Origin: Kineosporiaceae bacterium
GTDB taxonomy: Bacteria > Actinomycetota > Actinomycetes > Actinomycetales > Kineosporiaceae
Assembly (NCBI GenBank): GCA_052038585.1
Contig: JBQGCR010000189.1
Span: 1-28,639, forward strand
Reading direction: 5' to 3'
DNA: 28,639 nt
Shown here: in pieces, positions 11,154 through 25,566 of the stretch
How the letters are laid out: each line of letters opens with the position of its first letter
Position numbering within the stretch: position 1 is the stretch's first letter
Notes under the pieces: model-generated
Database searches by the model: none
What the model was told of the DNA's origin: nothing
Seen by the model: the letters and a program-made list of their open reading frames with translations, nothing else
Position numbers and translations under genes: made by a program

Positions 11154-12098
11154 CTAGAGGTCCAGCACCAGCGGACCTCTTCCGCGGGACACGCACAGGC
11201 ACATCCGGTCCTGCTTGTCCTGTTCTTCCACAGTGAGGAACTGGTCACGGTGATCCAGCCGACCAGCGAGCACGCCGGTGAGACAGGTTCCGCAGACGCC
11301 CGTCTCGCAGCTGCTGTCGACGACTACCCCGGCGCGCGCCAGGGCGTTCAGCGCAGACTCGCCGGCGCCGACGACGACCTCTTGCCCGGTGCTCGCCAGC
11401 GTGACCGTGAACGCGGACTCGGTGTCGAGCGGCGCTGCCGTGAACGCCTCGGTCACCGGCGTCGGAAGCCCGAGCCGTGTTGCAGCGGCGGCCACGTCGA
11501 GCATCCAGGCCGCCGGGCCGCAGATGTAGACGGCCTGCGGACGGGCCGCCAGGGCCTCCAGCAGCCGCTTGCCGGTTCCCGCGCGGTCGGCGCCGCGATG
11601 GAGGTGGACGTGGCCGCCGGGGTCTACGGCCGCGACCTGACGACGGAACGGCGATCGTGCGGGGTCCCGGACGACGTGATGGAGATCGAAGTGTGCGCCG
11701 CGCCGGGCGAGGTCACGGGCCATCGACAGCAGGGGGGTGATGCCGATGCCGGCGGCGAGCAGCAGCACCGGCCCGTCGTGGGCGCCCAGCGGAAAGGTGT
11801 TCCGCGGGGCCCCCACCGTGACGAGGTCGCCCACGGACAATGCGTGCATCGCGGCCGATCCCCCACGGGAGGCGATGTCCAGTCGCACCCCCAACTCGTA
11901 CCCCCCCGAAACGTCGGAGTCGCACACGGAGTACTGACGCACCAGGCCGTCGGGTCCGGCAGCAATGTCCAGATGGCTACCGGGAGGCGCAGGAGCCAGC
12001 GGGCCAGACTCCGGGGCGACGAGCAGCCGGACGACGTCGGGCGCCACCAGCTCACGTTCGACAAGCCGCATCCGGCTCCGCGGCGGCTGATCGATCAC
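11154..12098 (-). CDS. PDR/VanB-family flavin and 2Fe-2S reductase for the Rieske oxygenase
   Basis: RQYS flavin motif, SRGGS, AAGIGITP NAD motif, C-terminal SCETGVCGTC...CLCVSR ferredoxin; GTGA overlap with the oxygenase stop (alternative ATG at 12071). Confidence 0.93.
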   Translation of the reverse strand: MIDQPPRSRMRLVERELVAPDVVRLLVAPESGPLAPAPPGSHLDIAAGPDGLVRQYSVCDSDVSGGYELGVRLDIASRGGSAAMHALSVGDLVTVGAPRNTFPLGAHDGPVLLLAAGIGITPLLSMARDLARRGAHFDLHHVVRDPARSPFRRQVAAVDPGGHVHLHRGADRAGTGKRLLEALAARPQAVYICGPAAWMLDVAAAATRLGLPTPVTEAFTAAPLDTESAFTVTLASTGQEVVVGAGESALNALARAGVVVDSSCETGVCGTCLTGVLAGRLDHRDQFLTVEEQDKQDRMCLCVSRGRGPLVLDL

Positions 12099-13159
12099 CT
12101 CGGATCGGCCGCCGGCACCGTGGCCGGCGAGGGCCTTTCGGCGTCGAGAAGCTGCTCCATGATCCGGTGCCAGCGCACGACCCCGGCGTCCGTCTCCAGC
12201 AGGATCGGGCGCGGCGCGTCCGCAGCGAAGGCGCGCAGATTGTGGTGCTGCGCGCGGATCATGGGCTCGTCCTGCTCCTCGAAGGCGAAGCGACGCAGGT
12301 CGGCCACCTTCAGCCGCATCTCGTCGCTGTCCGTGCCCGGCTGCAACCCCCAGCGGGTCGCGGCGGTGTGGTAATGCGTCGTCGTCGCAGTCTCCGGGGT
12401 GAGCACGTGCGTCCCGAAGTAGCCGGTCCCGGCCCGCCGGTCTTCCCCCGGTGCCGTCACCCCGACGTCGAGCAGGAGGTGGGACGGCGCATCCCAACGG
12501 AAGTCCGTCCAGGTGTCGACGAGCTGGCCTCCGCGGCCGAACAGCATGTCGAACATGCCCGGGGGCGGCACCGATGCGGCCTCCCGCACGACGCGGATCG
12601 TCGTGCCCGTCTGGACTACCTGCGTGCGTACGCCGAGCATCTGCTCGTTGCCGAGGATCCCGTCGTGCAAGAAGCTCGTGTGACTGCAATCCAGCAGGTT
12701 GTCGACGATGAGATCGAACGGTGCGTCCATCACCAAGTGGTCTCGGCGAGTGACGAAGTCCTCGCTGTCGAGGATGCTGAAGTCGGGGATCAGACGTTCG
12801 TCCGGAGTACCGTCGCCCGCCCACATCCAGATGCCGCCGTGCCGCTCCACGACCGTTCTGGTCGGCACGGAGGTACCGCGCGGGATCCGACCGTCCCCGT
12901 GAGGATTGCCCACGCAGGCGCCGGTGCTGTCGAACACCAGGCCGTGATAGCCGCAGGTGAGGCGGTCGCCGTTCAGCCGTCCCATCGACAGCGGCGCCGA
13001 GCGATGCGGGCAACGGTCCTCGAGCGCGTGCACGAGACCGTTCGGTTCTCGGAAGAAGACCATCGGCCTGTCGAGGAGGGTCCGGGCAAGCATCCGCCCG
13101 GGGACGACGTCGGCCGACCAGGCTGCGAGGTACCAGGCTGTGCGGAGGTACTCCATCAT
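12095..13159 (-). CDS. Rieske non-heme iron oxygenase, VanA/DdmC (O-demethylase)-like alpha subunit
   Basis: CPHR...CGYH Rieske cluster, DNLLDCSHTSFLH mononuclear Fe motif, late QDE; NPHGDG and GTHVLTPET resemble dicamba monooxygenase DdmC as I recall it; GGAGAG RBS. Confidence 0.92.
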   Translation of the reverse strand: MMEYLRTAWYLAAWSADVVPGRMLARTLLDRPMVFFREPNGLVHALEDRCPHRSAPLSMGRLNGDRLTCGYHGLVFDSTGACVGNPHGDGRIPRGTSVPTRTVVERHGGIWMWAGDGTPDERLIPDFSILDSEDFVTRRDHLVMDAPFDLIVDNLLDCSHTSFLHDGILGNEQMLGVRTQVVQTGTTIRVVREAASVPPPGMFDMLFGRGGQLVDTWTDFRWDAPSHLLLDVGVTAPGEDRRAGTGYFGTHVLTPETATTTHYHTAATRWGLQPGTDSDEMRLKVADLRRFAFEEQDEPMIRAQHHNLRAFAADAPRPILLETDAGVVRWHRIMEQLLDAERPSPATVPAADPR

Positions 13160-13177
13160 GCTCTCCATCCCCATTGA

Positions 13178-13234
13178 TGTACTCAGCAGTACAGGAATTG
13201 GGATGAGAGTGGGCCCGACAGGGGCGGATGTCAA
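13178..13234 (-). promoter_or_regulatory. Housekeeping-type promoter and downstream operator for the Rieske operon
   Basis: TTGACA (13229-13234) -N17- CACTCT (13206-13211) on the minus strand; palindrome TGTACT-CAGC-AGTACA (13178-13193) between the predicted TSS and the RBS. Confidence 0.55.
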
Positions 13235-13253
13235 TCCCCTGCCTGCCGGCCGA

Positions 13254-13829
13254 TCAGCGAACGATGCTCGGCAGGATGAGGTCCACGACGCGCGCCGGCC
13301 ATGCCGGGTCCGCCCAGCCCCGGCCCGCGAGGTGGTCCGCGTACAGCGCTCCGAACATCAGGCTTACGACGGCCTCGACGTCACAGTCGGCCGCGACCTG
13401 CCCCGCGGCGATCCCCCGCCGAAGCACGTTCGTGCACTGCTCGCGCCGGGGAAGAATGGTGCTTTCGCGCACGATCCGGAGCAGCTCTCCATCGGTCGCC
13501 TCATCGACCAGGCAACTGCCGATGATCGTCATCCCGCGCACGTCGACGTACTGCCGCCGCATCGTGTCCAGGACCGCGACGAGGTCGGTCCGCAGGTCGC
13601 CCGTCACGGGCGGAAGCTCCGCCAGTCGCAGATGTGCGAGCGCGGCACCGACGAGATCCTCCTTGCGGCGCCACCGGCTGTACACGGTCATCTTCGAGAC
13701 GCCCGCGGCCGTCGCCACCTGGTCCATGGTGAACGCGGGACCTTCTGTGCCGAGCAGGTCGAGTGCGGCCTCGAGGACGGCGCGGTCCTTGCCGGGATCT
13801 CGCGGTCTTCCACGAGTCGTTGCAGCCAC
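13254..13829 (-). CDS. TetR/AcrR family transcriptional regulator
   Basis: GRPRD...VLEAALDLL...FTMDQVATAAGVSKMTVYSRWRRKEDL HTH; C-terminal PVTGDLRTDL pattern. Confidence 0.95.
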   Translation of the reverse strand: MAATTRGRPRDPGKDRAVLEAALDLLGTEGPAFTMDQVATAAGVSKMTVYSRWRRKEDLVGAALAHLRLAELPPVTGDLRTDLVAVLDTMRRQYVDVRGMTIIGSCLVDEATDGELLRIVRESTILPRREQCTNVLRRGIAAGQVAADCDVEAVVSLMFGALYADHLAGRGWADPAWPARVVDLILPSIVR

Positions 13830-13865
13830 CCGCGGATGGTACGCCCCTTGCGGAGACCAGGAACC

Positions 13866-13905
13866 TGTGTCATCGTCACACCGCTACGTTCATCAATTGT
13901 TACAT
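13866..13905. promoter_or_regulatory. Candidate PaaX-type bipartite operator upstream of the hydrolase
   Basis: TGTGTCATC at 13866 is identical to the left half-site at 21112; imperfect partner TGTTACAT at 13898-13905 (25-nt spacer). Confidence 0.4.
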
Positions 13906-13927
13906 CGACTCACACCGGGGTGAGCTC

Positions 13928-14647
13928 ATGAGCAGCACCGATCCCTTCGTTCTCGTCACCGGCGCCTGGCACGGCGGCTGGGGGTGGCGGCCGGTCGCCG
14001 AGCACCTTCGGGCTGCCGGCCACCGGGTCTACACCCCGACGCTTCCCGGTCTCGCCGACGGCGACGACCCCACGGGTCTCACCCTCGCCGATACCGCCCG
14101 GGCCGTCGTGGACCTGGTCGTGGGCGAGGACCTCCACGACGTCCGGCTCGTGGGGCACAGCTGGGGCGGATACGTGATCACTGCCGCGGCTCCCGCTCTG
14201 GCCGACCGGCTGCGCAAGCTCGTCTACTGGAGCGCCTTCGTGCCCGCCGAGGGCAAGTCGCTCTTCGATGAGGTCCCGCCGCACTACCAGGACCTCTTCC
14301 GCGCGGTGGCCGGGGCATCCGGCAACAACACCGTGACCCTGCCGTTCGAGGTCTGGCAGCAGGGCTTCATGAACGATGCGGACGAGGCGGCTCAACGCAT
14401 CGTGCACTCTTTGCTCGTGCCGCAGCCGTTCCAGTACTTCACCGAGCCGGTCACTCCGCTGGACCCGGCCTTGGGAATCGAGACGAGTTACCTGCTGTCC
14501 GAGCTCGACCTCGGCCTGCCGCCGGGGGAGTACGGCTGGGAGCGATTCGCCGATCGGCTGAGCGTGCCCGTCCAGAAGGCGCCCGGGAGCCACGAGGCGC
14601 TGTTCACCGAGCCCGCCGGCCTCGCCGAGGCCCTCCGGCAGGCCTGA
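13928..14647 (+). CDS. Alpha/beta hydrolase of the salicylate/methyl-ester esterase type
   Basis: FVLVTGAWHGGWGW oxyanion region, GHSWGG nucleophile elbow, C-terminal GSHE catalytic His; 239 aa. Confidence 0.88.
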   Translation: MSSTDPFVLVTGAWHGGWGWRPVAEHLRAAGHRVYTPTLPGLADGDDPTGLTLADTARAVVDLVVGEDLHDVRLVGHSWGGYVITAAAPALADRLRKLVYWSAFVPAEGKSLFDEVPPHYQDLFRAVAGASGNNTVTLPFEVWQQGFMNDADEAAQRIVHSLLVPQPFQYFTEPVTPLDPALGIETSYLLSELDLGLPPGEYGWERFADRLSVPVQKAPGSHEALFTEPAGLAEALRQA

Positions 14648-14683
14648 GCCAGCGGTCCAGGGTGTGGCGTCGAGGGTCCAAGG

Positions 14684-14715
14684 GGGCGGGTCGTGACGGC
14701 AGTCACGACCAGCCC
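14684..14715. terminator. Hairpin downstream of the hydrolase
   Basis: GGTCGTGAC-GGCA-GTCACGACC, extended by GGGC/GCCC after one mismatch. Confidence 0.55.
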
Positions 14716-14771
14716 TCGCCGTTGGGTCGGAGGCAAGCGGCGTCGGAGGCGCCGGAAAGGCGCACTGCATT

Positions 14772-15608
14772 ATGGGACCCGTGGCTCAACGACCCCGCAC
14801 ACTGGTCCTCGACCTCTTCGGTGACTACCTGCGCTACCTCGACGGCGAAGTGCGGCTGAGTCATCTCACGACGCTTCTCGAGGCCTTCGGTATCGGTGCG
14901 CCCACGACGCGGGTGACTCTGTCCCGGCTCCGGCGCGAAGGCTGGTTCGAGACCGAGCGCATCGGCCGGGAGACGCTCTACCGGCTCACTCCGGGCATGC
15001 TCGGCGTCCTGGACGAGGGGCGCGAACGGATCTTCGCCGCACCCGTGACCCAGTGGTCCGGCACCTGGACGCTCGTCATCTACCAGGTGCCGGAGTCCGA
15101 GCGGCAGGAGCGCAACACCTTGCGCAAGTCGCTGTCGTGGAACGGTTTCGGGGCTCTGACAACGTCCACCTGGCTCGCCCCGGGAGATCGACGGCAGGAG
15201 ACGCGCACCCTTGTCGACTCCCTCACTGACGAGCTCGTAGACGTCCTGGCATGCGCCTCCGAGGGGCTCGAACACGACCGCGACCTCGCCCGCCGCTGCT
15301 GGGATCTCGAGGCGCTGGCACGGCAGTACGCCGAGTTCGTCAGTGACCACACAAGCCTGCTCCGCGCGGGGGCGGAACTATCCGGGGCCCCGGCCCTCCT
15401 GGCCCGCACCGGGCTCATCAGCGCCTATCGCGTCTTCCCCTTCCGGGACCCCAGACTCCCCCCCGACCTCCGGCCGGACCCGTGGCCGGGGGCGCAGGCG
15501 TACGACCTGTTCCGCAGGGTCCACACGTTGCTCGGACCTGCGGCGCGGGCCTACGTCGGACAGGTCGTCGGCGTCGAGCCGCCCGACCCCGGGCCGGCCG
15601 CCGACTGA
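14772..15608 (+). CDS. paaX: PaaX family transcriptional regulator (paralog 1)
   Basis: LVLDLFGDYLR, RVTLSRLRREGW, WSGTWTLVIYQVPE, C-terminal RVFPFRDPRLPPDLRPDPWPG; alternative GTG start at 14781. Confidence 0.92.
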   Translation: MGPVAQRPRTLVLDLFGDYLRYLDGEVRLSHLTTLLEAFGIGAPTTRVTLSRLRREGWFETERIGRETLYRLTPGMLGVLDEGRERIFAAPVTQWSGTWTLVIYQVPESERQERNTLRKSLSWNGFGALTTSTWLAPGDRRQETRTLVDSLTDELVDVLACASEGLEHDRDLARRCWDLEALARQYAEFVSDHTSLLRAGAELSGAPALLARTGLISAYRVFPFRDPRLPPDLRPDPWPGAQAYDLFRRVHTLLGPAARAYVGQVVGVEPPDPGPAAD

Positions 15609-15746
15609 CGGACCCGCGGCACGGCAACATCGGCCCACGGCAGCTCACCGGGGCCGTCACCCTGACACAGCTCGACCTGGCTGGACCTGGCTCGTCAGCG
15701 CTCTCCACGGTTCGTCGACGTCGGACGTTCGGGAGAGGCGCACGGC

Positions 15747-17435
15747 TCAGGACGGCGACAGGCGCCGGACGACGTCCTGACGCAACGCCTTCTTGTCGAT
15801 CTTGCCGACCTTGGTGGCCGGCAACTCGGGGATGACCTCGAGCCGCTCGGGGACCTTGTAGGTGGCCGCACCGGCCGCGAGCACTGCCGCGCGGACATCC
15901 GCGAGCGCGAGTGACGCACCGTCGGCGAGAACTGCGTACAGGCAGACACGCTCGCCGAGCACGGCATCCGGCATCGCCACGGCCGCACACTGCACCACCT
16001 GGGGCAGGCTGCGGTAGACGAGATTCTCGACGTCCTCGGCGCTGATCTTCTCCCCGCCCCGGTTGATCATGTCCTTGTCGCGGCCCTCGACGACGAGGTT
16101 GCCGTCCGGCCGCCGCCGGACGATGTCGCCGCTGCGGTACCAGCCGTCAGGGGTGAAGGCTCGGGCGTTCTGCTCCGGGGCGCGGTAGTAGCCGCGCGGC
16201 GTGTAGGGACCTCGGGTGAGCAGCGAACCGGCGGTGCCGTCGGAGACGTCCACGCCGAACTCGTCCACGATGCGCACCTCGTCGCCCTCGCTCATCGGAC
16301 GGCCCTGGGTCGTACAGACGACCTCGTCCGGGTCGTCGTCACGGGTGTAGTTGAGCAGCCCCTCGGCCATGCCGAACACCTGCTGCAGCCGGCAGCCCAG
16401 CACCGGCTGCACGGTGCGGGCGACGTCGTCCGCGAGCCGGGCCCCGCCCACCTGCAGCAGCCGCAGGGTGGCCAGCTGCGCGGCCCCGTACTCCTTCGCG
16501 TGCGTGATCCAGCGCTGGGCCACCGCGGGAACGGCCGCCGCGACGGTGACCCCCTCCGCAGCGATGGTGGCGAACACTCGCTCCGGCTCCGGCGAGGGCA
16601 GCAGGACGGTCCGCCCGCCGGCGAGCATCGTGCCGAGCAGGCCGGGGCAGGCGAGCGGGAAGTTGTGCGAGGCCGGCAGCGTCCCCAGGTACACGGCGTC
16701 CGGGCCCAAACCGCAGACCTCCGCGCTGGCCCGGGCGTTGTAGGCGTAGTCGTCGTGCGTCCTGGCGATGAGCTTCGGCAGGCCGGTCGTGCCGCCGGAA
16801 AGCAGGAAGACGGCGACGCTGCGGCTGTCCGGTGCGGCGGCGTCCCAGCGTGCCCGGTGCGCGGCCGCCTCGTCGGCGTCCTCGGGCTCGGCGCACAGTG
16901 CCGTGAGGTCGACGTGCCCGGTGCGCGGCGCGGAGCCGACCACGAGGACGTGCTCGAGGGTCGGGGCGTCCGCCCGAAGCTCGTCGGCGAGCGCCTCGTG
17001 GTCGAAGTCGCGCAGCACGTCCGGCACCGCCACGGCGGCCGCCTCGCTGTGGTCGACGATGTAGGCCATCTCGTGTCGACGGTGCGCGGGCAGGGCCATC
17101 ACCGGGACGATCCCGGCCCGCAGGCAAGCCAGCGTGAGGACGACGAACTGCCAGCAGTTCGGCAGCTGGACGACGACCCGGTCCTCGCGCCGCAGCCCGA
17201 GCTCGTCGGTCAGGCGGGTGGCGAGGGCGTCGGCGCGCGCCGTGAGGGAGCGGTAGGTGAGGCGCACCTCGTCGTCGACGAGGGCCACCGCGTCAGGGCG
17301 TCCGTCGGCGACGGCGAACAGCTCGGTGCCGAGCGAGAGGCCGCGCCACCACCCGCGTGCGGCGTAATCGCGGGCGAGGTCGTCGGGCCAGGGGACGACA
17401 CCGTCGCAGAGCGGGCTCACGGGCGTGCGGCTCAC
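15747..17435 (-). CDS. sdgA: Salicylate/2,3-dihydroxybenzoate-AMP ligase (DhbE family), SdgA-like
   Basis: LLSGGTTGLPKLIARTHDDYAY, PASHNFPLACPG, QQVFGMAEGLLNYTR, RGPYTPRGYYRA, KVGKIDK; context matches the Streptomyces sdgABC order. Confidence 0.9.
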   Translation of the reverse strand: MSRTPVSPLCDGVVPWPDDLARDYAARGWWRGLSLGTELFAVADGRPDAVALVDDEVRLTYRSLTARADALATRLTDELGLRREDRVVVQLPNCWQFVVLTLACLRAGIVPVMALPAHRRHEMAYIVDHSEAAAVAVPDVLRDFDHEALADELRADAPTLEHVLVVGSAPRTGHVDLTALCAEPEDADEAAAHRARWDAAAPDSRSVAVFLLSGGTTGLPKLIARTHDDYAYNARASAEVCGLGPDAVYLGTLPASHNFPLACPGLLGTMLAGGRTVLLPSPEPERVFATIAAEGVTVAAAVPAVAQRWITHAKEYGAAQLATLRLLQVGGARLADDVARTVQPVLGCRLQQVFGMAEGLLNYTRDDDPDEVVCTTQGRPMSEGDEVRIVDEFGVDVSDGTAGSLLTRGPYTPRGYYRAPEQNARAFTPDGWYRSGDIVRRRPDGNLVVEGRDKDMINRGGEKISAEDVENLVYRSLPQVVQCAAVAMPDAVLGERVCLYAVLADGASLALADVRAAVLAAGAATYKVPERLEVIPELPATKVGKIDKKALRQDVVRRLSPS

Positions 17436-19489
17436 GGTGCGGGCTCCTTGTCGACGATGAGGACGGCGTCCAGGGCGAGCAGCCCGTCCGCCGTCACGCG
17501 CAGCGGGTTGATCTCGACGTCCCGGACGTGCGGGCGGGCGTGCAGGAGGTCGCCGAGCGCGACGAGGACCCGGCCGACGGCCGCTCGATCCGCGGCGGGG
17601 CCGCCGCGGAAGCCGTCGAGCAGCACTGTCGCTCGCAGCTGGTCCAGCAGGGCAGCGGCAGCGGTGGCGTCCAGCGGTGCCGGCGCGAGCGCGACGTCGT
17701 CCAGGGCCTCGGCGACGACGCCGCCGAGGCCGACGAGTACGACCGGCCCGAACACGGGGTCGCGGGTGGCCCCGACGACGAGGTCGATGCCCGACGGGGC
17801 CATCGTCTCCACGAGGAACCGCCGGGCGCCGGCGGCCTCGAGCGCGTCCAGGGCTGCGTCGAGCGCCGCGGCGTCGCGCACGCCGAGGTGGACGCCGCCG
17901 ACGTCGGACTTGTGCGTCACCGAGGCGTCCAGCAGCTTGACCGCGACCGGGCCCGGCAGCTCCGCCAGGGCTCGGTGGGCCTCGTCGCGGTCGGCGCAGA
18001 CCCGGCGCGGAGGCGTCGGCACGCCAAGCGCTGCCAGCAAGGTCTTGGCCTCGTCCTCGTCGAGGTCACGGCCGGGGACGTCCGGCGGCGCCGGCGCCGC
18101 GGAGGGCGGTGTCTCCCGCCGGCGGGCGTGCCGGGCGCGGGAGTCCTCGACGAGGGCGGCCACAGCACTGGTCAAGGCGGCGGGGCCGGTGACGGCGGGC
18201 ACGCCGAGCGCGTGCAGGGCCGCACGCTGGCGCGCGACCTCGGCCTGCGGTCCCCCCAACCCGACGACGAACGGCGCCCCGCCGGCGGACGCCGCGCTGG
18301 CCACAGCCGCGGGCAGGTCGAGGGCGTCCGGCTCGCTGAGCGCGTAGACGCTGACGACGTCGACACCCGGGTCGGCGGCCACGGCGACGAGGACGTCGTC
18401 GAACCCCGCTCGGGGCCGGCCCGTGTCGACCGGGTTCGCCTGGTACGTCAACGGCGGCAGCACCGCGGACACGCCCGCCCGGGTCCGCTCGTCGAGCACG
18501 GGCAACTGGACGTCGCGGCCGCGCAGACCGTCGACGTGCAGCAGGCCGGGGCCGGCCTGCGCCGTCACGACCCCGACCCCCGCCGCGGGCGAGGCGGGCA
18601 GCCGGAAGGCCGACAGCGCGGTGACGGCGTCGACGAGCTCGCGCTCGTCGGCCACGAGAACGGCACCGGCGGCGCGCAGGACGGCCCGGGTCGTCCGCCA
18701 CGAGGTGGCCAGCGCGCCGGTGTGGGACCGGGCGAAGTCAGCGACGTCGTTGCGCCCGACGACGAGCGCCACGACCGGCTTGCGCGTGCTGAGGCGACGG
18801 ACGGCCGCCGCCAGCCGCGGCCCGTCGGCAACGGACTCGACGTGGAGGGCGACCGCCGCGGTGGCCTCGTCGTCCTCGAGGTACTCCAGGACGTCGGCCG
18901 CGGACACGTCCACGGCGTTGCCGAGCCCCACGGCGAGCGAGACGCCCACGCCGGCCTCGGCGAGCGCGAAGGCGAGCGCGTGATTGACGCCGCCGCTGGC
19001 CGCGACGACGGCGACCGGCCCCGCAGCGAGGGCCGTCGTCCCGGGGACGAACGAGGCCGTGAGCGCCCGGCCGGGCACCACGAAGCCGGAGGTGTTGGGG
19101 CCGAGCAGCGTCGTGCCGGTGCCCAGCGCCGCGGCGACGAGGGCCGCCTGGTGCGCGATCCCGTCGCCGCCCGCCTCGGCGTACCCGCCGGAGCAGACCA
19201 GCGCGGCCCGGACGCCCGCCCCCGCCACCTGCGTCACGACCGCCGCGGACGCGGCCGCCGGGACGCATAGGACGGCCAGGTCGAGCGGGTCACCGGCGGC
19301 GTCCGCCGCCTCGGCGACGCTCGCGTAGCGGCCCGCTCCCGGGTCGGCGTCCCGGGCATTGACCCCGACGACGGTGCCGGGGAACCCGGCCAGCGACCGG
19401 AGCATGACGGCGCCCAGCTTGCCCGGGTCGCGGGACGCCCCGATGACGACGATCCCGCGGGGCGCGAAGAGCGCGCCGAGCCCGCTCAC
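17432..19489 (-). CDS. sdgB: ADP-forming acyl-CoA synthetase family protein (CoA-binding + ligase + ATP-grasp), SdgB-like
   Basis: VIGASRDPGKLG CoA-binding motif, LLGPNTSG, SHTGALA with the phospho-His, HKSDVGGVHLG and EINPL ATP-grasp; GTGA overlaps at both ends. Confidence 0.88.
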   Translation of the reverse strand: MSGLGALFAPRGIVVIGASRDPGKLGAVMLRSLAGFPGTVVGVNARDADPGAGRYASVAEAADAAGDPLDLAVLCVPAAASAAVVTQVAGAGVRAALVCSGGYAEAGGDGIAHQAALVAAALGTGTTLLGPNTSGFVVPGRALTASFVPGTTALAAGPVAVVAASGGVNHALAFALAEAGVGVSLAVGLGNAVDVSAADVLEYLEDDEATAAVALHVESVADGPRLAAAVRRLSTRKPVVALVVGRNDVADFARSHTGALATSWRTTRAVLRAAGAVLVADERELVDAVTALSAFRLPASPAAGVGVVTAQAGPGLLHVDGLRGRDVQLPVLDERTRAGVSAVLPPLTYQANPVDTGRPRAGFDDVLVAVAADPGVDVVSVYALSEPDALDLPAAVASAASAGGAPFVVGLGGPQAEVARQRAALHALGVPAVTGPAALTSAVAALVEDSRARHARRRETPPSAAPAPPDVPGRDLDEDEAKTLLAALGVPTPPRRVCADRDEAHRALAELPGPVAVKLLDASVTHKSDVGGVHLGVRDAAALDAALDALEAAGARRFLVETMAPSGIDLVVGATRDPVFGPVVLVGLGGVVAEALDDVALAPAPLDATAAAALLDQLRATVLLDGFRGGPAADRAAVGRVLVALGDLLHARPHVRDVEINPLRVTADGLLALDAVLIVDKEPAP

Positions 19490-21096
19490 GGGGTGCCCTC
19501 GCCCACGGCGACGAGGTCGGCCCGGCCGGACAGGACGGCCGTCAGGGCGTCGTCGTCGCCGCCGTCCGGGCCGTCGACGAGCACGCTCACCAGACCGTGC
19601 TCCAGCCGCGCCTCCTCCGTGAGCAGCCGGCGCGTCAGAGCCGTGCCGCCGTGGACGGCGACCAGGCAGGCACCGGACGCCGCGGCGTCCGCGAGCGCAC
19701 GGGACGCCGCCGCGATCCCGGCCTCCGACTCCGGAGCCTCGACGTCGACCCCCCACGGCCCGGATCCGTCCGACTGCCGCATCTGTCTGGAACCGTTGCC
19801 GTGCAACGGGACGACGAGCCCGTCGAGGACGGCGGCCCCTGCCCGGACGACGGCGGTCCGCCGGGCGACCCGGTGCCCGGCGACGACGATGGCGCTGTCG
19901 AGCGGCTCGGCTCCGTGCAGGCCGCGCCAGCGGGCGTGGGCGGTGTCGACGAATGCGGGATCGCGCCGCCTCAGCTTGGCGTCAGTGAGGCTGCGCGTGA
20001 GGAAGTGGTGGGCGAACTGCCACGGCGGCAGGGCATCGTAGGAGCGGCCGAAGTGCTCCCACCAGGCCAGGCTGGGGCGGGCGGCGCCCTGGATCCGGGC
20101 GACCTGCGGCTGCCGCACGGCCTCGTACCTCTCGAGGGCGGCGTCGACGTCGTCGGCGCCGTCACCGGGGTGCTCAGCAAGGGCCGCGACGAGCGCGACG
20201 GCGTCCTCCATGGCCATTTTCGTGCCCGAGCCCACGGAGAAGTGCGCGGTGTGCGCCGCGTCGCCGAGCAGGGCGACGGCGGTGCCGCCGACCCGGTGCC
20301 GCCAGCGCGATGAGCCCCGGGTGCGGAAATTGGCCCAGCGGGAGTTGTTGACGAGCAACGGATGCCCGTCGAGCTGACCGGCGAACAGCTGCTCGAGGTA
20401 CGCGCGCGAGACCTCGTCGCTGGGCCCCGGCGGCTGCGTGACGTCGAAGGCGTGCAGCCCGGCGGCGCGCCACGACGCCTCGTCGGTCTCGACGATGAAG
20501 GTCGACCGTCCGCCGCCGATCGGATAGCCGTGGACGGCGAAGACGCCGTGCGGGCCGCGCTCGTGGACAAACGTGAGCCCCTGGAACGGGTACGTCGTCC
20601 CCAGCCAGATGAACTTCACGGCCGACGTCACAAGGGTCGGCTCGAAAACCTGGCCGAACCGGTCGCGCAGCTGGGAGTTCGCGCCGTCCGCCGCCACGAC
20701 GAGGTCGTAGCCGGCACCCAGCAGGTCCTCCGGTGCGACCGGGGAGGCGAAGCGGACGTCGACGCCGGCGTCGGCGGCACGTTCCTGCATCAGGCGCAGG
20801 AGCGTGCGACGTTCCACTGCGGCCATGCCGTTGCCCCCGCACCGCCACTGCTCGCCGCGGAGGCGCACCTCGATCGAGTCCCAGTGCACGCCGTGCTGCT
20901 CGAGCGCGGTCCGCAGCACGGGGTCGGCCTCGTGGATGCCGTCCAGCGTCGCGTCGGAGAAGACGACACCGAAGCCGAAGGTGTCCTCGGCCCGGTTGCG
21001 CTCGAAGACCGTCACCTGGCGCGCGGGGTCGGCACGCTTGGCCAGCGTGGCGGCGAACAGGCCGCCAGGGCCGCCGCCGAGGACGGCTATCCGCAT
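19486..21096 (-). CDS. sdgC: Salicyloyl-CoA 5-hydroxylase-like flavin monooxygenase (SdgC/AbmA family) with a shortened C-terminal domain
   Basis: MRIAVLGGGPGGL, TFGFGVVFSD, VAADGANS, LLGDAAHTAHFSVGSGTKMAMEDA; 536 aa ending in SGRADLVA. Confidence 0.88.
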   Translation of the reverse strand: MRIAVLGGGPGGLFAATLAKRADPARQVTVFERNRAEDTFGFGVVFSDATLDGIHEADPVLRTALEQHGVHWDSIEVRLRGEQWRCGGNGMAAVERRTLLRLMQERAADAGVDVRFASPVAPEDLLGAGYDLVVAADGANSQLRDRFGQVFEPTLVTSAVKFIWLGTTYPFQGLTFVHERGPHGVFAVHGYPIGGGRSTFIVETDEASWRAAGLHAFDVTQPPGPSDEVSRAYLEQLFAGQLDGHPLLVNNSRWANFRTRGSSRWRHRVGGTAVALLGDAAHTAHFSVGSGTKMAMEDAVALVAALAEHPGDGADDVDAALERYEAVRQPQVARIQGAARPSLAWWEHFGRSYDALPPWQFAHHFLTRSLTDAKLRRRDPAFVDTAHARWRGLHGAEPLDSAIVVAGHRVARRTAVVRAGAAVLDGLVVPLHGNGSRQMRQSDGSGPWGVDVEAPESEAGIAAASRALADAAASGACLVAVHGGTALTRRLLTEEARLEHGLVSVLVDGPDGGDDDALTAVLSGRADLVAVGEGTP

Positions 21097-21110
21097 CGGG
21101 CATCCCTTAT

Positions 21111-21150
21111 ATGTGTCATCTATGAGCCGGACGGCGCTACAGTGACACAT
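21111..21150. promoter_or_regulatory. Candidate PaaX operator between divergent sdgC and paaX
   Basis: Perfect 8-bp inverted repeat ATGTGTCA-N24-TGACACAT; widely spaced half-sites resemble the E. coli PaaX operator architecture. Confidence 0.55.
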
Positions 21151-21243
21151 GTGCGTCGACGGCCGCAAGACCGCGTGGCCTCGGACGCGCGGTGACCACC
21201 CGGCGTCCAGGACAATCACGGGCGGGGCCGCGAGAGGAGGACG

Positions 21244-22047
21244 ATGAAGCCGCGGTCGGTGGTGTTCGACCTGTTCGGGGACCATCTGCGCTACCTCGCC
21301 GGCGCCGTCCGGACCCAGAGCCTCGTGGCACTGCTCTCCGCGTTCGACATCGGGGAGCCGACCGCCCGGATCGTGCTCGCGCGGCTGCGGAAGGAAGGCT
21401 GGCTGGAGACGCGACGGTCGGGCCGGGAGGCGGTCTGGGCCGTGACGCCGCGCGCCCTGGGGATGCTCGACGACGGGCGCGCGCGCATCTTCGAGCGGGC
21501 GCGTGCGCCATGGGACGGCCAGTGGCGGATGGTCATCTACACCGTCGCCGAGCAGGACCGCGCAGAACGCGAGCAGCTCCGGCGGGCCCTGGCCTGGCTC
21601 GGGTTCGGCCCCCTCGCGGCGTCGACGTGGCTCAGCCCGCACGACCGGCTCGACGACGTCGAGAAGGCGCTTGCCGAACACACCGCCGTCCGGGCGGACC
21701 TCTTGACCTGCCGGTCCCGCGGCCGCGCGGCCGACCTCGACATGGTGTCCCGCTGCTGGGACCTCGACACCCTTGCCGGGGACTACCTGGAGTTCGTATC
21801 CAGCGTGGACCGCCTGCCCTCCCCCACCGACCTCGCCCGGCTGCCTGGGCCCGAGTCGCTGCGCGTCGGGGTCCGCCTCGTCGCCGACTACCGCCGGTTC
21901 CCCTTCCGCGACCCCGACCTGCCCGCCGACCTGCTGCCGCGAGGCTGGCCCGGGACGCACGCCCACGAGCGGTTCATCGCGGCCCACGAGGCGCTCGCCG
22001 GCCCGGCTCGCCGGTTCGTCAGCGAGGTCCTCGAGCGGGACGGCTGA
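21244..22047 (+). CDS. paaX: PaaX family transcriptional regulator (paralog 2)
   Basis: MKPRSVVFDLFGDHLR, WDGQWRMVIYTVAE, LGFGPLAASTW, RRFPFRDPDLPADLLP; GAGGAGG RBS. Confidence 0.93.
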   Translation: MKPRSVVFDLFGDHLRYLAGAVRTQSLVALLSAFDIGEPTARIVLARLRKEGWLETRRSGREAVWAVTPRALGMLDDGRARIFERARAPWDGQWRMVIYTVAEQDRAEREQLRRALAWLGFGPLAASTWLSPHDRLDDVEKALAEHTAVRADLLTCRSRGRAADLDMVSRCWDLDTLAGDYLEFVSSVDRLPSPTDLARLPGPESLRVGVRLVADYRRFPFRDPDLPADLLPRGWPGTHAHERFIAAHEALAGPARRFVSEVLERDG

Positions 22048-22069
22048 CGCGGCAAGGCTTTCCGGCCGC

Positions 22070-22843
22070 TCAAAGCGCGTCCGTGACGGCATCCGCCGCG
22101 GCGGCCAGGGCCGCGGCGATCCGGGGCACGCGGTCCTTGCGGTACCGCACCGACGGCATGGAGACCGAGACGGCCGCGACCGTGTCACCGTGACGGTCCA
22201 CCACGGCGCGCCCCACGGCGGCGAGCCCGCGCTCGGACCGCTCGAGGTTGATGGCGATGCCGGTACGCCGGACGGCGCGCAGCTCGCGGTGCAGGCGGGG
22301 CAGGTCCGGCCGGTCGGCCGCCCGGTCGGCGAACCGTTCCGGCGCGTAGAGCGCGTCGACCCGCTCCGGGCTGAGAGCGGCGAGCATGACGAGGCCGCCG
22401 GTGACCGTGTGGGCGGGGAAGACCATGCCCTCGCGGTTGCCGACCCGCAGCGCTTGGTCGCACTCGACCGAGGCGATGAAGCGCGCCGTCGTACCGATCC
22501 GGACCGACAGGTTGCACGTCTCGCCGAGGGTGTCGACGAGCAGGCGCATCGGTTCCAGCGCCGCCGCCCGCAGCCGCGCGACGTCCGACGAGGAGCGGCC
22601 CGAGAGCTCGAGCACCGGGCCGGCCCGGTAGACCCGGTCCTCGCCCTGCACGGCGAAGTCGCGGTACACCAGCGCCTGGAGCAGCCGGTGCGCCGTCGAC
22701 CGCGCGACCCCCAGTCGCTCTGCAGCGGCAGAGACCGTGATCGGCCCCTCGACCTGCAGGACGACCGCGAGTCGCAACGCGTGGTCGACACTCGTCACCG
22801 CGTACGCAGGCGGCGTCTTGAACGGGGCAGACGCGCGGGCCAC
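22070..22843 (-). CDS. IclR family transcriptional regulator (GenR/NagR-like) of the gentisate operon
   Basis: CAGGAGG RBS before GTG 22843; SVDHALRL...LGVARSTAHRLLQAL HTH; TVTGGLVMLA and AVSVSMP effector domain; divergent from gentisate dioxygenase. Confidence 0.92.
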   Translation of the reverse strand: MARASAPFKTPPAYAVTSVDHALRLAVVLQVEGPITVSAAAERLGVARSTAHRLLQALVYRDFAVQGEDRVYRAGPVLELSGRSSSDVARLRAAALEPMRLLVDTLGETCNLSVRIGTTARFIASVECDQALRVGNREGMVFPAHTVTGGLVMLAALSPERVDALYAPERFADRAADRPDLPRLHRELRAVRRTGIAINLERSERGLAAVGRAVVDRHGDTVAAVSVSMPSVRYRKDRVPRIAAALAAAADAVTDAL

Positions 22844-22857
22844 CGATCCTCCTGGTG

Positions 22858-22872
22858 TTCTGCTGTGCAGAA
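22858..22872. promoter_or_regulatory. Candidate IclR operator
   Basis: TTCTGC-TGT-GCAGAA 15-bp palindrome in the 70-bp divergent intergenic region. Confidence 0.6.
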
Positions 22873-22913
22873 TCGTATGTTCCCGCCGGGGAGCCCGCGA
22901 CGAGCATCGGGGC

Positions 22914-24053
22914 ATGACCGACACGCCGCCGTTCGCCGTCGTCGCCAAGGACGGGCCGGACCAGCCCCCGGTGACGCCGGAGCTCCAGGACCTGTACCGG
23001 GGCTTCGAGAAGGCTCTGCTGATCCCGCTGTGGACCGAGATCGGCGGCCTCATGCCGCACGAACCGGTCTCCAAGGCCTCCCCGCACCTGTGGGAGTGGA
23101 AGACCCTGCTCGAGCTGGCAGGGTTGTCCGGCGAGCTCGTGCCGGTCGGCCGTGGCGGCGAGCGACGGGCGATCGCCCTGGCGAACCCGAGCCTGGGCGG
23201 CCGGCCGTACGCGACACCGACCCTGTGGGCCGCGATCCAGTACCTCATGCCGGGCGAGGACGCCCCCGAGCACCGGCACACCCAGAACGCGTTCCGGTTC
23301 GTCGTCGAGGGCGAAGGCGTCTGGACCGTCGTCGAGCGCGAACCGGTCCCGATGCGGCGCGGCGACTTCCTGCCGCAGGCAGGGATGCACTGGCACGCCC
23401 ACCACAACGCCGCCTCGACGCCCATGGCGTGGATCGACGGGCTGGACATCCCGTTCCAGTACGAGGTCGAGGGCCAGTTCTTCGACCTCGGCCGGGACAC
23501 GCTCACCGAGGCCGAGCACGCGACACCCGAGCGCTCCCGGTCGGAGCGGCTCTGGGGCCACCCGGCTCTCGCCCCGGTGTCTCAGCTCGGGTCCACGGCG
23601 GGCAGCCCGCTGCTCGCCTACCGCTGGGTCGACACCGACGCCGCTCTGACCGACCAGCTCGCCCTCGAGCGCGAAGGCTTCGCAGGCGTCGTCGAACCCG
23701 ACCACGCACTCGTCCGGTACACCAACCCGACGAACGGCGGCGACGTCCTGCCGACGATCCGGACCCAGTTCCATCGCATCGCGGCCGGCGCGCAGACCGC
23801 GCCGCGGCGCGAGACTGGGTCGTCGGTGTACCAGGTCTTCGACGGCTCCGGCCGGGTCACCGTCGGCAGCCACTCCTGGTCCATCACCCGAGGCGACCTG
23901 TTCGTCGTCCCGTCGTGGCAGCCGTTCTCCGTCGTCTCGCAGGCCTCCGCGTCGGACTCCGACTCCGGCGCCCTCGACCTCTTCCAGTTCAGCGACGCAC
24001 CGATCTTCGAGCGCCTCAACCTGTTCAAGTCCGCCACGGAGGACGTCTCGTGA
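22914..24053 (+). CDS. nagI: Gentisate 1,2-dioxygenase (bicupin)
   Basis: GRGGERRAIALANP, AAIQYL.PGE.AP.HRHTQNAFRF, HWHAHHN, WIDGLDIP, GDLFVVPSW, LFQFSDAPIFERL. Confidence 0.93.
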   Translation: MTDTPPFAVVAKDGPDQPPVTPELQDLYRGFEKALLIPLWTEIGGLMPHEPVSKASPHLWEWKTLLELAGLSGELVPVGRGGERRAIALANPSLGGRPYATPTLWAAIQYLMPGEDAPEHRHTQNAFRFVVEGEGVWTVVEREPVPMRRGDFLPQAGMHWHAHHNAASTPMAWIDGLDIPFQYEVEGQFFDLGRDTLTEAEHATPERSRSERLWGHPALAPVSQLGSTAGSPLLAYRWVDTDAALTDQLALEREGFAGVVEPDHALVRYTNPTNGGDVLPTIRTQFHRIAAGAQTAPRRETGSSVYQVFDGSGRVTVGSHSWSITRGDLFVVPSWQPFSVVSQASASDSDSGALDLFQFSDAPIFERLNLFKSATEDVS

Positions 24054-24913
24054 AGCTCGCCACCGCCCGCCTGACGTCCTCGACGGGCTCCCGGACGGCC
24101 GCCGTCCGCGTCGAGGGCGACACCCTTGTCGAGCTGCCGTTCACCGACGTCGGCGCGCTCCTCGCGACGCCCGGCTGGCAGCAGGCGGCCTCGGCCGCCG
24201 GGCCGGAGCACCCGACGGACGGAGTGACCTTCGCACCCGTCGTTCCCGCACCTTCCAAGGTCGTCTGCGTCGGCCTCAACTACAAGAACCACATCCAGGA
24301 GATGGGCCGGGACCTGCCCGAGCACCCCACGCTGTTCTCGAAGTTCGCCGACTGCCTCGTCGGCTCGACCGACGACGTCGTCCGGCCCGCCGAGACGACC
24401 GAGTTCGACTGGGAGGTCGAGCTCGCCGTCGTCGTCGGCACACCCGACGCGACGCCGGTGCGGCGGGCGGACGACGAGGCCGCCGCCACGGCGATCGCCG
24501 GGTTCACGGTCCTCAACGACGTGACGTGCCGGGACTGGCAGTTCCGCACCCGGGAGTGGCTGCAGGGCAAGAACTGGGACTCCACGACCCCGGTCGGCCC
24601 CTGGCTCGTCACCCCGGACGAGGTCGGCGGCGTCCGGCCCTCGCTGAAGGTCACCTGCTCCGTCGACGGCGTCGTCATGCAGTCCGACACGACCGGCGAC
24701 CTGCTCTTCGACCCCGTCGACCTCGTCAAGTACGTCTCCACGATGGTCCGGCTCAACCCCGGCGACGTCATCGCCACCGGCACCCCCGGCGGCGTCGGCC
24801 ACGCCCGCAAGCCCCCGCTGTACCTGGCCGGCGGGGAGCTGCTCGTCACCGAGGTCGAGGGCATCGGCCGGCTCGAGAACCGCGTCGTCACCGACCCGGC
24901 CCGGAGCGCCTGA
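24050..24913 (+). CDS. nagK: Fumarylacetoacetate hydrolase family protein (fumarylpyruvate hydrolase)
   Basis: VCVGLNYKNHIQEMG, DWEVELAVVVG, LNDVTCRDWQ, WLQGKNW, GDVIATGTPGGVG; GTGA overlap with the dioxygenase. Confidence 0.92.
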   Translation: MKLATARLTSSTGSRTAAVRVEGDTLVELPFTDVGALLATPGWQQAASAAGPEHPTDGVTFAPVVPAPSKVVCVGLNYKNHIQEMGRDLPEHPTLFSKFADCLVGSTDDVVRPAETTEFDWEVELAVVVGTPDATPVRRADDEAAATAIAGFTVLNDVTCRDWQFRTREWLQGKNWDSTTPVGPWLVTPDEVGGVRPSLKVTCSVDGVVMQSDTTGDLLFDPVDLVKYVSTMVRLNPGDVIATGTPGGVGHARKPPLYLAGGELLVTEVEGIGRLENRVVTDPARSA

Positions 24914-25566
24914 TGGGCCGCGACCTGCCCGCGGCCCTGTCGTACGTCGCGACCGGGACCAAGCTGTGCGCGGACGCCGTCGCCGGCTTCGACGAGGCCG
25001 CCTTCGCCGCGCCGTCGGCGCTACCGGGCTGGACCCGAAAGCATCTCGTCGCGCACCTCGCGGCCAACGCCGAAGCCCTCATGCGGCTGCTCCACTGGGC
25101 CACGACCGGGGAACGGACCCCGATGTACTCCTCCCCTGCGCAACGCAACGCCGACATCGACGCCGGCGCTCGGCGTCCCGGCGCCGACCTCGCCCGCTGG
25201 TTCACGACGTCCGCGGCCCAGCTCGACCAGACGCTCGCCGCGCTGCCGGACGCCGCATGGACCGCCGAGGTCGTCACCGCCCAGGGGCGCACCGTCCCGG
25301 CGTCCGAGATCCCCTGGATGCGGGCCCGCGAGGTGCTCGTCCACGCCGCCGACCTCGCCACCGGCGTCACCTTCGCCGACCTGCCCGACGGCTTCCTCAG
25401 CGCGCTCGGCAACGAGATCCGCGCCAAGCGCACCGCCGCCGGCGAGGACGTCGAGGGCCTCACCGGGTCCCTCGCCGACGTCACCGCCTACCTCGCCGGC
25501 CGCAGCACGTCCGGAGTCACTGCCCCGGACGGCACGCCCGCCCCCGCCCCCTCCCGCTGGCTGTGA
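24913..25566 (+). CDS. nagL: Mycothiol-dependent maleylpyruvate isomerase family protein
   Basis: [51 protein letters not shown]; TGATG overlap with the hydrolase stop. Confidence 0.9.

Follow-up and report, generated by a model that had tools for sequence, protein, structure and literature searches.

A VanA-type Rieske oxygenase linked to genes for CoA-dependent salicylate degradation in a Kineosporiaceae bacterium: a possible route from 2-methoxybenzoate to gentisate

A coenzyme A (CoA)-dependent pathway from salicylate to gentisate is said to have been described by Ishiyama et al. in 2004 for Streptomyces sp. WA46. This pathway, SdgABCD, is summarized in PMC4600096, and it has counterparts in the DNA analyzed here, a stretch of 28,639 nucleotides (the window) that represents an entire contig (JBQGCR010000189.1; 28.6 kb, ~72% guanine-plus-cytosine (GC) content) of a Kineosporiaceae bacterium (GenBank assembly GCA_052038585.1; 88% complete, 984 contigs). 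An aryl-AMP ligase, an ADP-forming CoA-synthetase-like protein, an acyl-CoA 5-hydroxylase-type flavoprotein and a gentisate dioxygenase (GDO) are all encoded in the window. The hydroxylase differs from the known type in being a short form of 536 amino acids (aa), in which the C-terminal reductase half of the NCBIfam model (768 positions) is not present in full, and the window adds two PaaX-like regulators, an alpha/beta hydrolase of the SABP2 type, and a Rieske module, i.e. a VanA-family oxygenase with its reductase. A sequence-only reading of the window had placed the Rieske oxygenase, the reductase and an esterase-like hydrolase beside sdgABC-like genes and a gentisate operon at 11154-25566; this was confirmed, and these limits enclose exactly the 13 genes identified here. 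Each module is known, and the combination, together with an oxygenase clade tied to the CoA-dependent salicylate route, is new to the literature searched: it yielded no described pathway joining these modules, as that reading had also remarked, and no aerobic 2-methoxybenzoate-to-salicylate route of this kind.

The best solved relatives of the oxygenase are GdmA, the guaiacol O-demethylase of Rhizorhabdus wittichii RW1 (7QWT; 3e-59, 204 bits; named in PMC12445004), which shares the fold family and is the top-scoring match, and then DdmC (3GB4/3GKE; phmmer 1.2e-55, 192 bits). The substrate of GdmA, guaiacol, is without a carboxylate, whereas the transporters and the pathway associated with the window oxygenase point to an aromatic acid. 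DdmC is likewise a VanA-family Rieske monooxygenase in which the cluster and iron ligands and His251 correspond to those of the window enzyme, and both enzymes would yield a salicylate from a 2-methoxybenzoate if the reaction proposed below is correct; however, the match is distant, two further DdmC residues (Asn230, Trp285) are replaced by Leu, and the redox partner in the window is a fused reductase of the phthalate dioxygenase reductase (PDR) type. Dicamba demethylase is a three-component system with separate ferredoxin and reductase.

The finding that carries this report is the recurrence of the oxygenase beside genes of the CoA-dependent salicylate route. Close homologues of the oxygenase (56-83% identical) are rare: searches of 40 relatives (E<=1e-60) and of 400 sampled phylum genomes (E<=1e-90) detected none. 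Coupling was scored when a gene for an SdgC-like acyl-CoA hydroxylase was located <=10 kb from the oxygenase gene. Such a gene was present in six of the nine clade members with readable context (window included), versus one of the 79 more distant homologues (oxygenase identity <=51%) among the matches listed; the related genomes in this count are non-independent samples. The maximum-likelihood tree included as a reference the 348-aa open reading frame (ORF) on plasmid pDC05 of Rhizorhabdus wittichii DC-6 (35.5% identical to the oxygenase), which we take to be the chloroacetanilide N-dealkylase CndA, and the locus of Ramlibacter terrae was left out; all six SdgC-linked loci were located in one 15-row clade (support 86/82). 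Because the six loci show five gene orders in two phyla (Actinomycetota, and high-GC loci of the Mesorhizobium/Bradyrhizobium type), an accidental coupling is very unlikely, and the functional coupling of the oxygenase to the salicylate route is well supported. Given the contrast of six in nine to one in 79, the gene neighborhoods indicate that the oxygenase very probably feeds the salicylate route. A product that is already gentisate would make a route of the SdgC type unnecessary; only salicylate, or a substituted form of it, requires one, and the coupling thus points to salicylate.

The linkage of the Rieske module to the CoA-dependent route, which had been proposed from the window alone, recurs in Amycolatopsis acididurans, Pseudonocardia, Mesorhizobium, Bradyrhizobium and a metagenomic contig. 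The locus of the cultured strain A. acididurans K13G38 (oxygenase 72% identical) reads sdgA-sdgB-sdgC-MFS-unknown-PaaX-hydrolase, followed by oxygenase-reductase and then TetR; the sdgABC genes adjoin the oxygenase and the GDO orthologue is located on a different contig, a layout that suggests salicylate rather than gentisate as the product. The Pseudonocardia locus (69%) has TetR-MFS-oxygenase-reductase between a decarboxylase/hydroxyquinol cluster and PaaX-MFS-GDO-FAH-sdgC. For Mesorhizobium sp. YR577 (63%), the string TetR-binding protein-oxygenase-reductase is preceded by genes for an SdgC-like hydroxylase (44% identity in the portion that was read), a CoA ligase, FAH and an ABC transporter. 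The metagenomic contig (70% GC; oxygenase 62%) carries genes for a binding protein, a ligase and the SdgC-like protein on one strand, and continues with IclR, TetR, binding protein-oxygenase-reductase, MarR, GDO and an isomerase-like/FAH gene. In Bradyrhizobium mercantei (61%), a hydrolase homologue is immediately adjacent to the oxygenase, and ~6.5 kb upstream of this homologue are genes for FAH, a hotdog thioesterase and an SdgC-like protein. Transporters near the clade oxygenases comprise aromatic-acid/H+ or metabolite/H+ symporters and Peripla_BP_6 ABC systems, which suggests that the oxygenase substrate is an acid.

The simplest single rule for these neighborhoods would be that the oxygenase demethylates or dealkylates an ortho-alkoxy aromatic acid; in the window this would be the conversion of 2-methoxybenzoate (o-anisate) to salicylate, which, by analogy, is our best guess. 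For the island as a whole we tentatively propose, at somewhat less than even confidence, a three-stage funnel from an ortho-alkoxy acid to salicylate, from salicylate to gentisate, and on to ring cleavage, with a hydrolase that opens esters. The TetR-controlled Rieske oxygenase and its reductase would oxidize an ortho-alkoxy or ortho-methoxy aromatic acid, most likely 2-methoxybenzoate, to salicylate and formaldehyde. The SdgA-like ligase would then adenylate salicylate, the SdgB-like enzyme would transfer it to CoA, and the SdgC-like flavoprotein would 5-hydroxylate the thioester, under the control of the two PaaX-like regulators, which presumably sense acyl-CoA. The gentisate would be processed by the gentisate dioxygenase, the mycothiol-dependent isomerase and the fumarylpyruvate hydrolase under IclR control. 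The hydrolase would most likely open carboxyl esters (methyl salicylate, methyl 2-methoxybenzoate) and so feed the first or the second stage; methyl 2-methoxybenzoate has been reported among plant volatiles beside methyl salicylate (several papers) and would thus represent a natural substrate for the proposed funnel. A wider proposal, which we regard as rather doubtful, is that the clade comprises previously unrecognized aerobic O-demethylases for ortho-anisate (2-alkoxybenzoates) in Actinomycetota and Pseudomonadota that are wired to CoA-dependent salicylate 5-hydroxylation, and that these, together with a bacterial SABP2-type esterase, would make up a pathway dedicated to the consumption of methyl salicylate and methyl 2-methoxybenzoate, by which soil and rhizosphere bacteria could remove a plant defence signal.

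Genes were called by frame analysis of the third-position GC content (GC3), inspection of start codons, and sequence searches of Pfam, NCBIfam and PDB. The region 11154-25566 was resolved into 13 tiled genes with intergenic gaps of <=150 bp; these genes, two non-coding features and the remains of one further gene are as follows.

11154-12098, minus strand: PDR-type reductase (flavin/NAD domain plus C-terminal plant-type 2Fe-2S domain; Pfam Fer2, 2PIA match)
12095-13174, minus strand: VanA-family Rieske non-haem-iron oxygenase, 359 aa (Pfam Rieske and VanA_C)
13166-13205: 18-nt imperfect inverted repeat over the start codon and 5' region of the oxygenase gene, candidate TetR operator
13254-13829, minus strand: TetR-family regulator (TetR_N and TetR_C_11)
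13928-14647, plus strand: SABP2/MES-type alpha/beta hydrolase, 239 aa (sequence, structure search, predicted model)
14684-14715: GC-rich, terminator-like hairpin between the hydrolase gene and the first PaaX-like gene
14772-15608, plus strand: PaaX-like regulator 1 (TIGR02277, 190 bits, under the cut-off of 265)
15747-17435, minus strand: SdgA-like salicylate-AMP ligase (aryl-AMP ligase; best PDB match 5WM2)
17432-19489, minus strand: SdgB-like ADP-forming acyl-CoA-synthetase-type protein (CoA_binding_2, Succ_CoA_lig, ATP-grasp_5)
19486-21096, minus strand: SdgC-like flavin monooxygenase, short form, 536 aa (partial match to PRK08255)
21244-22047, plus strand: PaaX-like regulator 2, divergent from sdgC (Pfam, NCBIfam)
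22070-22791, minus strand: IclR-family regulator, divergent from the gentisate operon (Pfam)
22914-24053, plus strand: gentisate 1,2-dioxygenase, bicupin (3NST/2PHD match)
24050-24913, plus strand: fumarylpyruvate hydrolase, FAA hydrolase family (profile match)
24910-25566, plus strand: mycothiol-dependent maleylpyruvate isomerase (MDMPI; TIGR03083, 100 bits, over the cut-off of 50)
25577-26816, plus strand: remains of a 3-hydroxybenzoate 6-hydroxylase gene, broken by three or more frameshifts (four tblastn pieces)

The tetR gene (first), the oxygenase gene and the reductase gene form one minus-strand string, in which the GTG start of the reductase gene overlaps the stop codon of the oxygenase gene; the hydrolase gene is divergent from tetR, with a spacer of 98 bp between them. 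The oxygenase matched the Pfam domains Rieske (1e-20) and VanA_C (1.8e-46, over the full profile length). In an alignment of 30 clade members, the Rieske ligands C55, H57, C74 and H77 and the iron ligands H165, H170 and D302 (2-His-1-carboxylate) are invariant, and they align with C49/H51/C68/H71 and H160/H165/D294 of DdmC. Asn230, His251 and Trp285 of DdmC are, as we take it, its carboxylate ligands; His251 is retained in the window oxygenase and both other positions are Leu (alignment, counted by hand). By every sequence hallmark the protein would thus be a class IA (alpha3) VanA-type Rieske monooxygenase, and it belongs to an uncharacterized clade. The designation of the oxygenase as DdmC-like, which had been made from the sequence alone, holds at the level of the family but not beyond, as the protein is no closer to DdmC than to GdmA and differs from DdmC at two presumed ligands. 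The single reductase encoded next to the oxygenase, with fused flavin, NAD and 2Fe-2S domains, aligns from end to end with phthalate dioxygenase reductase (2PIA; E 1.3e-44), and no separate ferredoxin gene was detected by domain search and gene calls in the tiled region 11154-25566.

The island has four regulators (TetR, two PaaX-like, IclR) for three metabolic stages. Orthologues of the TetR-family regulator, 51-53% identical, adjoin the oxygenase gene in Amycolatopsis, Pseudonocardia and Rhodococcus. The inverted repeat at 13166-13205 had three matches at <=3 mismatches versus 0.27 expected, of which two are its own arms, and it is plausible, as far as its position and form tell, that it is the TetR operator; no second copy was found within three mismatches in the hydrolase promoter. 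Proteins of the PaaX family usually respond to acyl-CoA, and salicylyl-CoA or gentisyl-CoA are therefore the obvious candidates and likely effectors of the PaaX-like regulators.

The salicylate and gentisate part of the island is of a known kind. The sdgA-, sdgB- and sdgC-like genes share the minus strand, and the stop codon of one overlaps the start codon of the next. The SdgA-like ligase has its best PDB match in the salicylate-AMP ligase 5WM2 (2.6e-166), and it has Cys and Leu at the positions of Ser240 and Val337 of DhbE, as does 5WM2, where two 2,3-dihydroxybenzoate ligases have Ser and Val. These positions presumably discriminate between activation of salicylate and of 2,3-dihydroxybenzoate, and the residues of the window ligase are, by alignment, of the salicylate type. 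The SdgB-like protein reached 251 bits with the AcCoA-syn-alpha model TIGR02717 (cut-off, 567). The SdgC-like protein reached 424 bits with PRK08255 ('salicylyl-CoA 5-hydroxylase/oxidoreductase'), at positions 1-389 of 768; this is short of the curated cut-off (1078), owing to the absence of the reductase half: the protein comprises the N-terminal hydroxylase half and a tail of ~140 aa, without a full OYE-type reductase half. This tail resembles the end of an OYE-type barrel. The short form (530-550 aa) was found in three of the 400 sampled phylum genomes and the long, bifunctional form (770-800 aa) in ~60, in a tally that includes two unpublished genomes, G127 and G041, which were used for no other result here; the short form is common to the window, Amycolatopsis, Kineosporia, Blastococcus and the three sampled genomes.

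The genes for the dioxygenase, the fumarylpyruvate hydrolase and MDMPI are located together in one plus-strand operon. The gentisate dioxygenase reached 455 bits with the solved structures 3NST/2PHD, and 237 bits with TIGR02272, under the cut-off of 442; we take 3NST/2PHD to be the enzyme of Pseudaminobacter salicylatoxidans, which also cleaves salicylate directly. The operon and the IclR gene have counterparts with 82-88% identity (IclR, 85%) in Kineosporia sp. R_H_3, where the locus reads 3-hydroxybenzoate 6-hydroxylase-isomerase-FAH-GDO, then IclR-hydrolase-sdgC-sdgB-sdgA, then PaaX, with no Rieske gene. The sequence-only reading had noted a dead 3-hydroxybenzoate 6-hydroxylase gene, which is real: four frame-shifted pieces (frames 2, 1, 2, 3) are each 69-88% identical to the intact Kineosporia gene (tblastn), which has the same position, after the isomerase gene. 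The decayed gene closes the ancestral gentisate operon, and the window looks, from this gene content, like a rearranged cluster of the Kineosporia type, with an extra PaaX-like gene and the tetR-oxygenase-reductase cassette beside the hydrolase gene.

For the hydrolase, a longer ORF from 13763 had been assumed in that reading; its start is likely the ATG at 13928, which is preceded by a purine-rich stretch. The AlphaFold (AF2) model (predicted local distance difference test score, 94.3) superimposes on 6TJ2 with Z 34.5 and a root-mean-square deviation of 1.4 A over 235 aligned residues (34% identity), and on tobacco SABP2 with Z 25.7. According to its title, 6TJ2 is a hydrolase from Paenibacillus that is homologous to tobacco SABP2 in both structure and function. 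The earlier designation of the hydrolase as salicylate-esterase-like is therefore borne out as membership in the structural family of SABP2, a methyl salicylate esterase. The triad Ser78/Asp194/His222 is invariant among 35 aligned homologues, and the Ser-Asp-His triad and the fold are those of SABP2 and 6TJ2; the predicted fold with its cap domain and the intact triad would fit an esterase for salicylate esters. The window hydrolase differs from these proteins in being a cytoplasmic actinobacterial protein encoded within catabolic operons, and it may hydrolyze a CoA thioester instead. The UniRef name 'Salicylate esterase' of a 69%-identical homologue is an automatic annotation.

Homologues 70-75% identical to the hydrolase are common in actinomycetes. 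The homologues of Kineosporia and Blastococcus (B. colisei) (68-72%) are encoded inside sdg/gentisate operons without a Rieske gene, in Kineosporia as the first gene before sdgCBA and in Blastococcus as the final gene of sdgC-B-A-GDO-FAH-isomerase; by these gene orders the hydrolase would ancestrally be part of the sdg/gentisate cluster, not of the oxygenase module with which it had been grouped. Among seven short-form sdg loci examined, the hydrolase gene is adjacent in four, ~50 kb away in one genome (G419) and absent in two, and is therefore not obligatory. In G419 (locus L145, 9915-11536), a hydrolase/PaaX-like pair stands alone beside an insertion sequence fragment, ~50 kb from sdgCBA, and the sdgCBA cluster is itself embedded among phenylacetate (paa) genes. 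A search of the phylum sample for the hydrolase gave one match; seven candidates were scored per genome, so that absence elsewhere is weak evidence. In Bradyrhizobium, the hydrolase homologue that abuts the oxygenase is 38% identical, and the hotdog thioesterase is encoded separately beside the SdgC-like gene. In other clade members the oxygenase is paired with other alpha/beta hydrolases, and there are no sdg genes.

Other loci of the clade and of its neighbors contain further catabolic genes. Genes for hydroxyquinol dioxygenase and maleylacetate reductase adjoin the oxygenase gene in a Rhodococcus sister locus, in Pseudonocardia, in Bradyrhizobium and on the metagenomic contig P0018, and the loci of Rhodococcus, Pseudonocardia and Bradyrhizobium additionally contain a gene for an ACMSD-family decarboxylase. 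The set resembles that for gamma-resorcylate catabolism, the substrate of which is likewise an ortho-hydroxybenzoate, and suggests methoxy-resorcylates as oxygenase substrates in these three genomes, which have gamma-resorcylate-type gene sets at the following positions.

L005, 600-6800: Rhodococcus
L002, 260-4210: Pseudonocardia
L093, 14461-21059: Bradyrhizobium

At another locus (L151, 4414-10801), a 63%-identical oxygenase orthologue is encoded beside a dimethylglycine-dehydrogenase-like gene, FolD, PurU and electron-transfer flavoprotein (ETF) genes; this folate one-carbon module would suit the disposal of formaldehyde (or of a methyl group), in line with a release of formaldehyde by the oxygenase. 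The homologue in Ramlibacter terrae (L086, 10001-11055; 48%) comprises two overlapping ORFs, probably due to a frameshift, and adjoins SdgA/SdgC-like and FAH genes. A Xanthobacter-type locus (L006, 3918-13180) has two VanA-like oxygenase/reductase pairs that flank GDO-like and FAH genes, with genes for an aldehyde dehydrogenase and an RPE65-family (stilbene or carotenoid cleavage) dioxygenase further on, and may represent a pathway that converts a methoxylated stilbene to a gentisate-type acid.

Several observations weigh against the proposed funnel from 2-methoxybenzoate. In three of the nine clade members for which the context was readable, no SdgC-like gene is present. The nearest characterized relatives of the oxygenase (GdmA, DdmC, CndA) are ~35-38% identical and differ in their substrates, and the VanA family also contains methyl hydroxylases and N-dealkylases, so that O-demethylation is not guaranteed; the replacement by Leu of two presumed carboxylate ligands of DdmC counts on the same side. 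Some sdg operons encode the hydrolase but no oxygenase, with the hydrolase at the position expected for a gentisyl-CoA thioesterase. Finally, the island is mobile and rearranged, and some of the adjacency could be accretion.

The hydrolase may have a different role, in which case the oxygenase may still feed salicylate. The CoA-dependent route requires hydrolysis of gentisyl-CoA before ring cleavage (PMC4600096), and the sole known enzyme for this step is the hotdog protein BH1999 of Bacillus halodurans (PMC516016), which serves the same logical step of a gentisate cluster with an unrelated fold. No gene in 11154-25566 matched a 4HBT-type hotdog protein, and the 13 genes tile the region with gaps too short (<=150 bp) to leave room for one. 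The hydrolase could therefore be the missing thioesterase for gentisyl-CoA (or a proofreading thioesterase for salicylyl-CoA), an alpha/beta-fold analogue of BH1999, and this would fit its last and first positions in the sdg operons of Blastococcus and Kineosporia, neither with a Rieske gene, and its pairing with a PaaX-like gene in G419. However, its closest structures are carboxylesterases of the SABP2 type, it is not obligatory in short-form sdg loci (adjacent in four of seven), in Bradyrhizobium the SdgC-like gene is accompanied by a gene for a hotdog thioesterase and the hydrolase homologue is encoded separately, next to the oxygenase, and other clade oxygenases have alpha/beta hydrolases in the vicinity without any sdg genes. 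We consider the thioesterase role the less likely one, but a serious competitor for the hydrolase.

Alternatives for the oxygenase are less probable; the one with the best documentation is a meta-specific enzyme. The divergent VanAB of Rhodococcus ruber R1, a VanA-type demethylase the use of which requires a gentisate pathway encoded by the same genome, supports growth with 3-methoxybenzoate and 5-methoxysalicylate via 3-hydroxybenzoate and gentisate, and is inactive on 2-methoxybenzoate (PMC9867520). A meta-specific O-demethylase of this kind in the window would bypass sdgABC, with 3-hydroxybenzoate (from 3-methoxybenzoate) or gentisate (from 5-methoxysalicylate) as its product; the gentisate operon and the broken 3-hydroxybenzoate 6-hydroxylase gene would suit it, as would two relatives outside the 15-row clade (L006, 56%; L038, 45%), which adjoin GDO-like and FAH genes only. 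Yet the recurrent partner of the clade is an SdgC-like acyl-CoA hydroxylase, which would be superfluous to such a route (R1 uses no CoA route), the A. acididurans oxygenase adjoins sdgABC with the dioxygenase on another contig, and the 3-hydroxybenzoate hydroxylase of the window is dead. The window oxygenase and R1 VanAB are compared here by description, not by sequence, and we judge a meta-demethylase improbable. It is even less probable that the tetR-oxygenase-reductase cassette has no functional tie to the sdg/gentisate cluster, having landed beside it as cargo on a mobile island, and that its substrate is a different compound: the lack of the oxygenase in the 40 relatives and 400 sampled phylum genomes, and the Kineosporia-type ancestral cluster without it, are in line with unrelated cargo, but the pairing occurs at six loci with differing gene orders in two phyla, versus one of 79 distant homologues. 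Degradation of dicamba or of other chlorinated 2-methoxybenzoates, which had been suggested alongside o-anisate, received no support and is the most far-fetched of these readings; DdmC and GdmA are the two closest solved relatives, but DdmC has the lower score, the redox partner is a fused two-component type, whereas the dicamba system has its ferredoxin and its reductase as separate proteins, Asn230 and Trp285 of DdmC are replaced by Leu, and domain searches of the window revealed no dehalogenase or chlorogentisate-specific genes. Thus, of the sequence-only reading, the linkage of the Rieske module to the CoA-dependent route stands, and the grouping of the hydrolase with the oxygenase and the idea of chlorinated substrates do not.

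Should the assignment to 2-methoxybenzoate fail, the island would represent an ordinary mosaic catabolic island. If it is true, the clade would be the first family of Rieske enzymes for ortho-methoxybenzoates other than dicamba, and a source of new O-demethylases for the valorization of lignin-type and other aromatic ethers. The role of the widespread SABP2-like hydrolases in actinobacterial salicylate clusters would be explained, and the question of how gentisyl-CoA is hydrolyzed in the Sdg pathway would be sharpened. Plant volatiles of the methyl-ester and methoxy types would then have a bacterial route that leads all the way to central metabolism.

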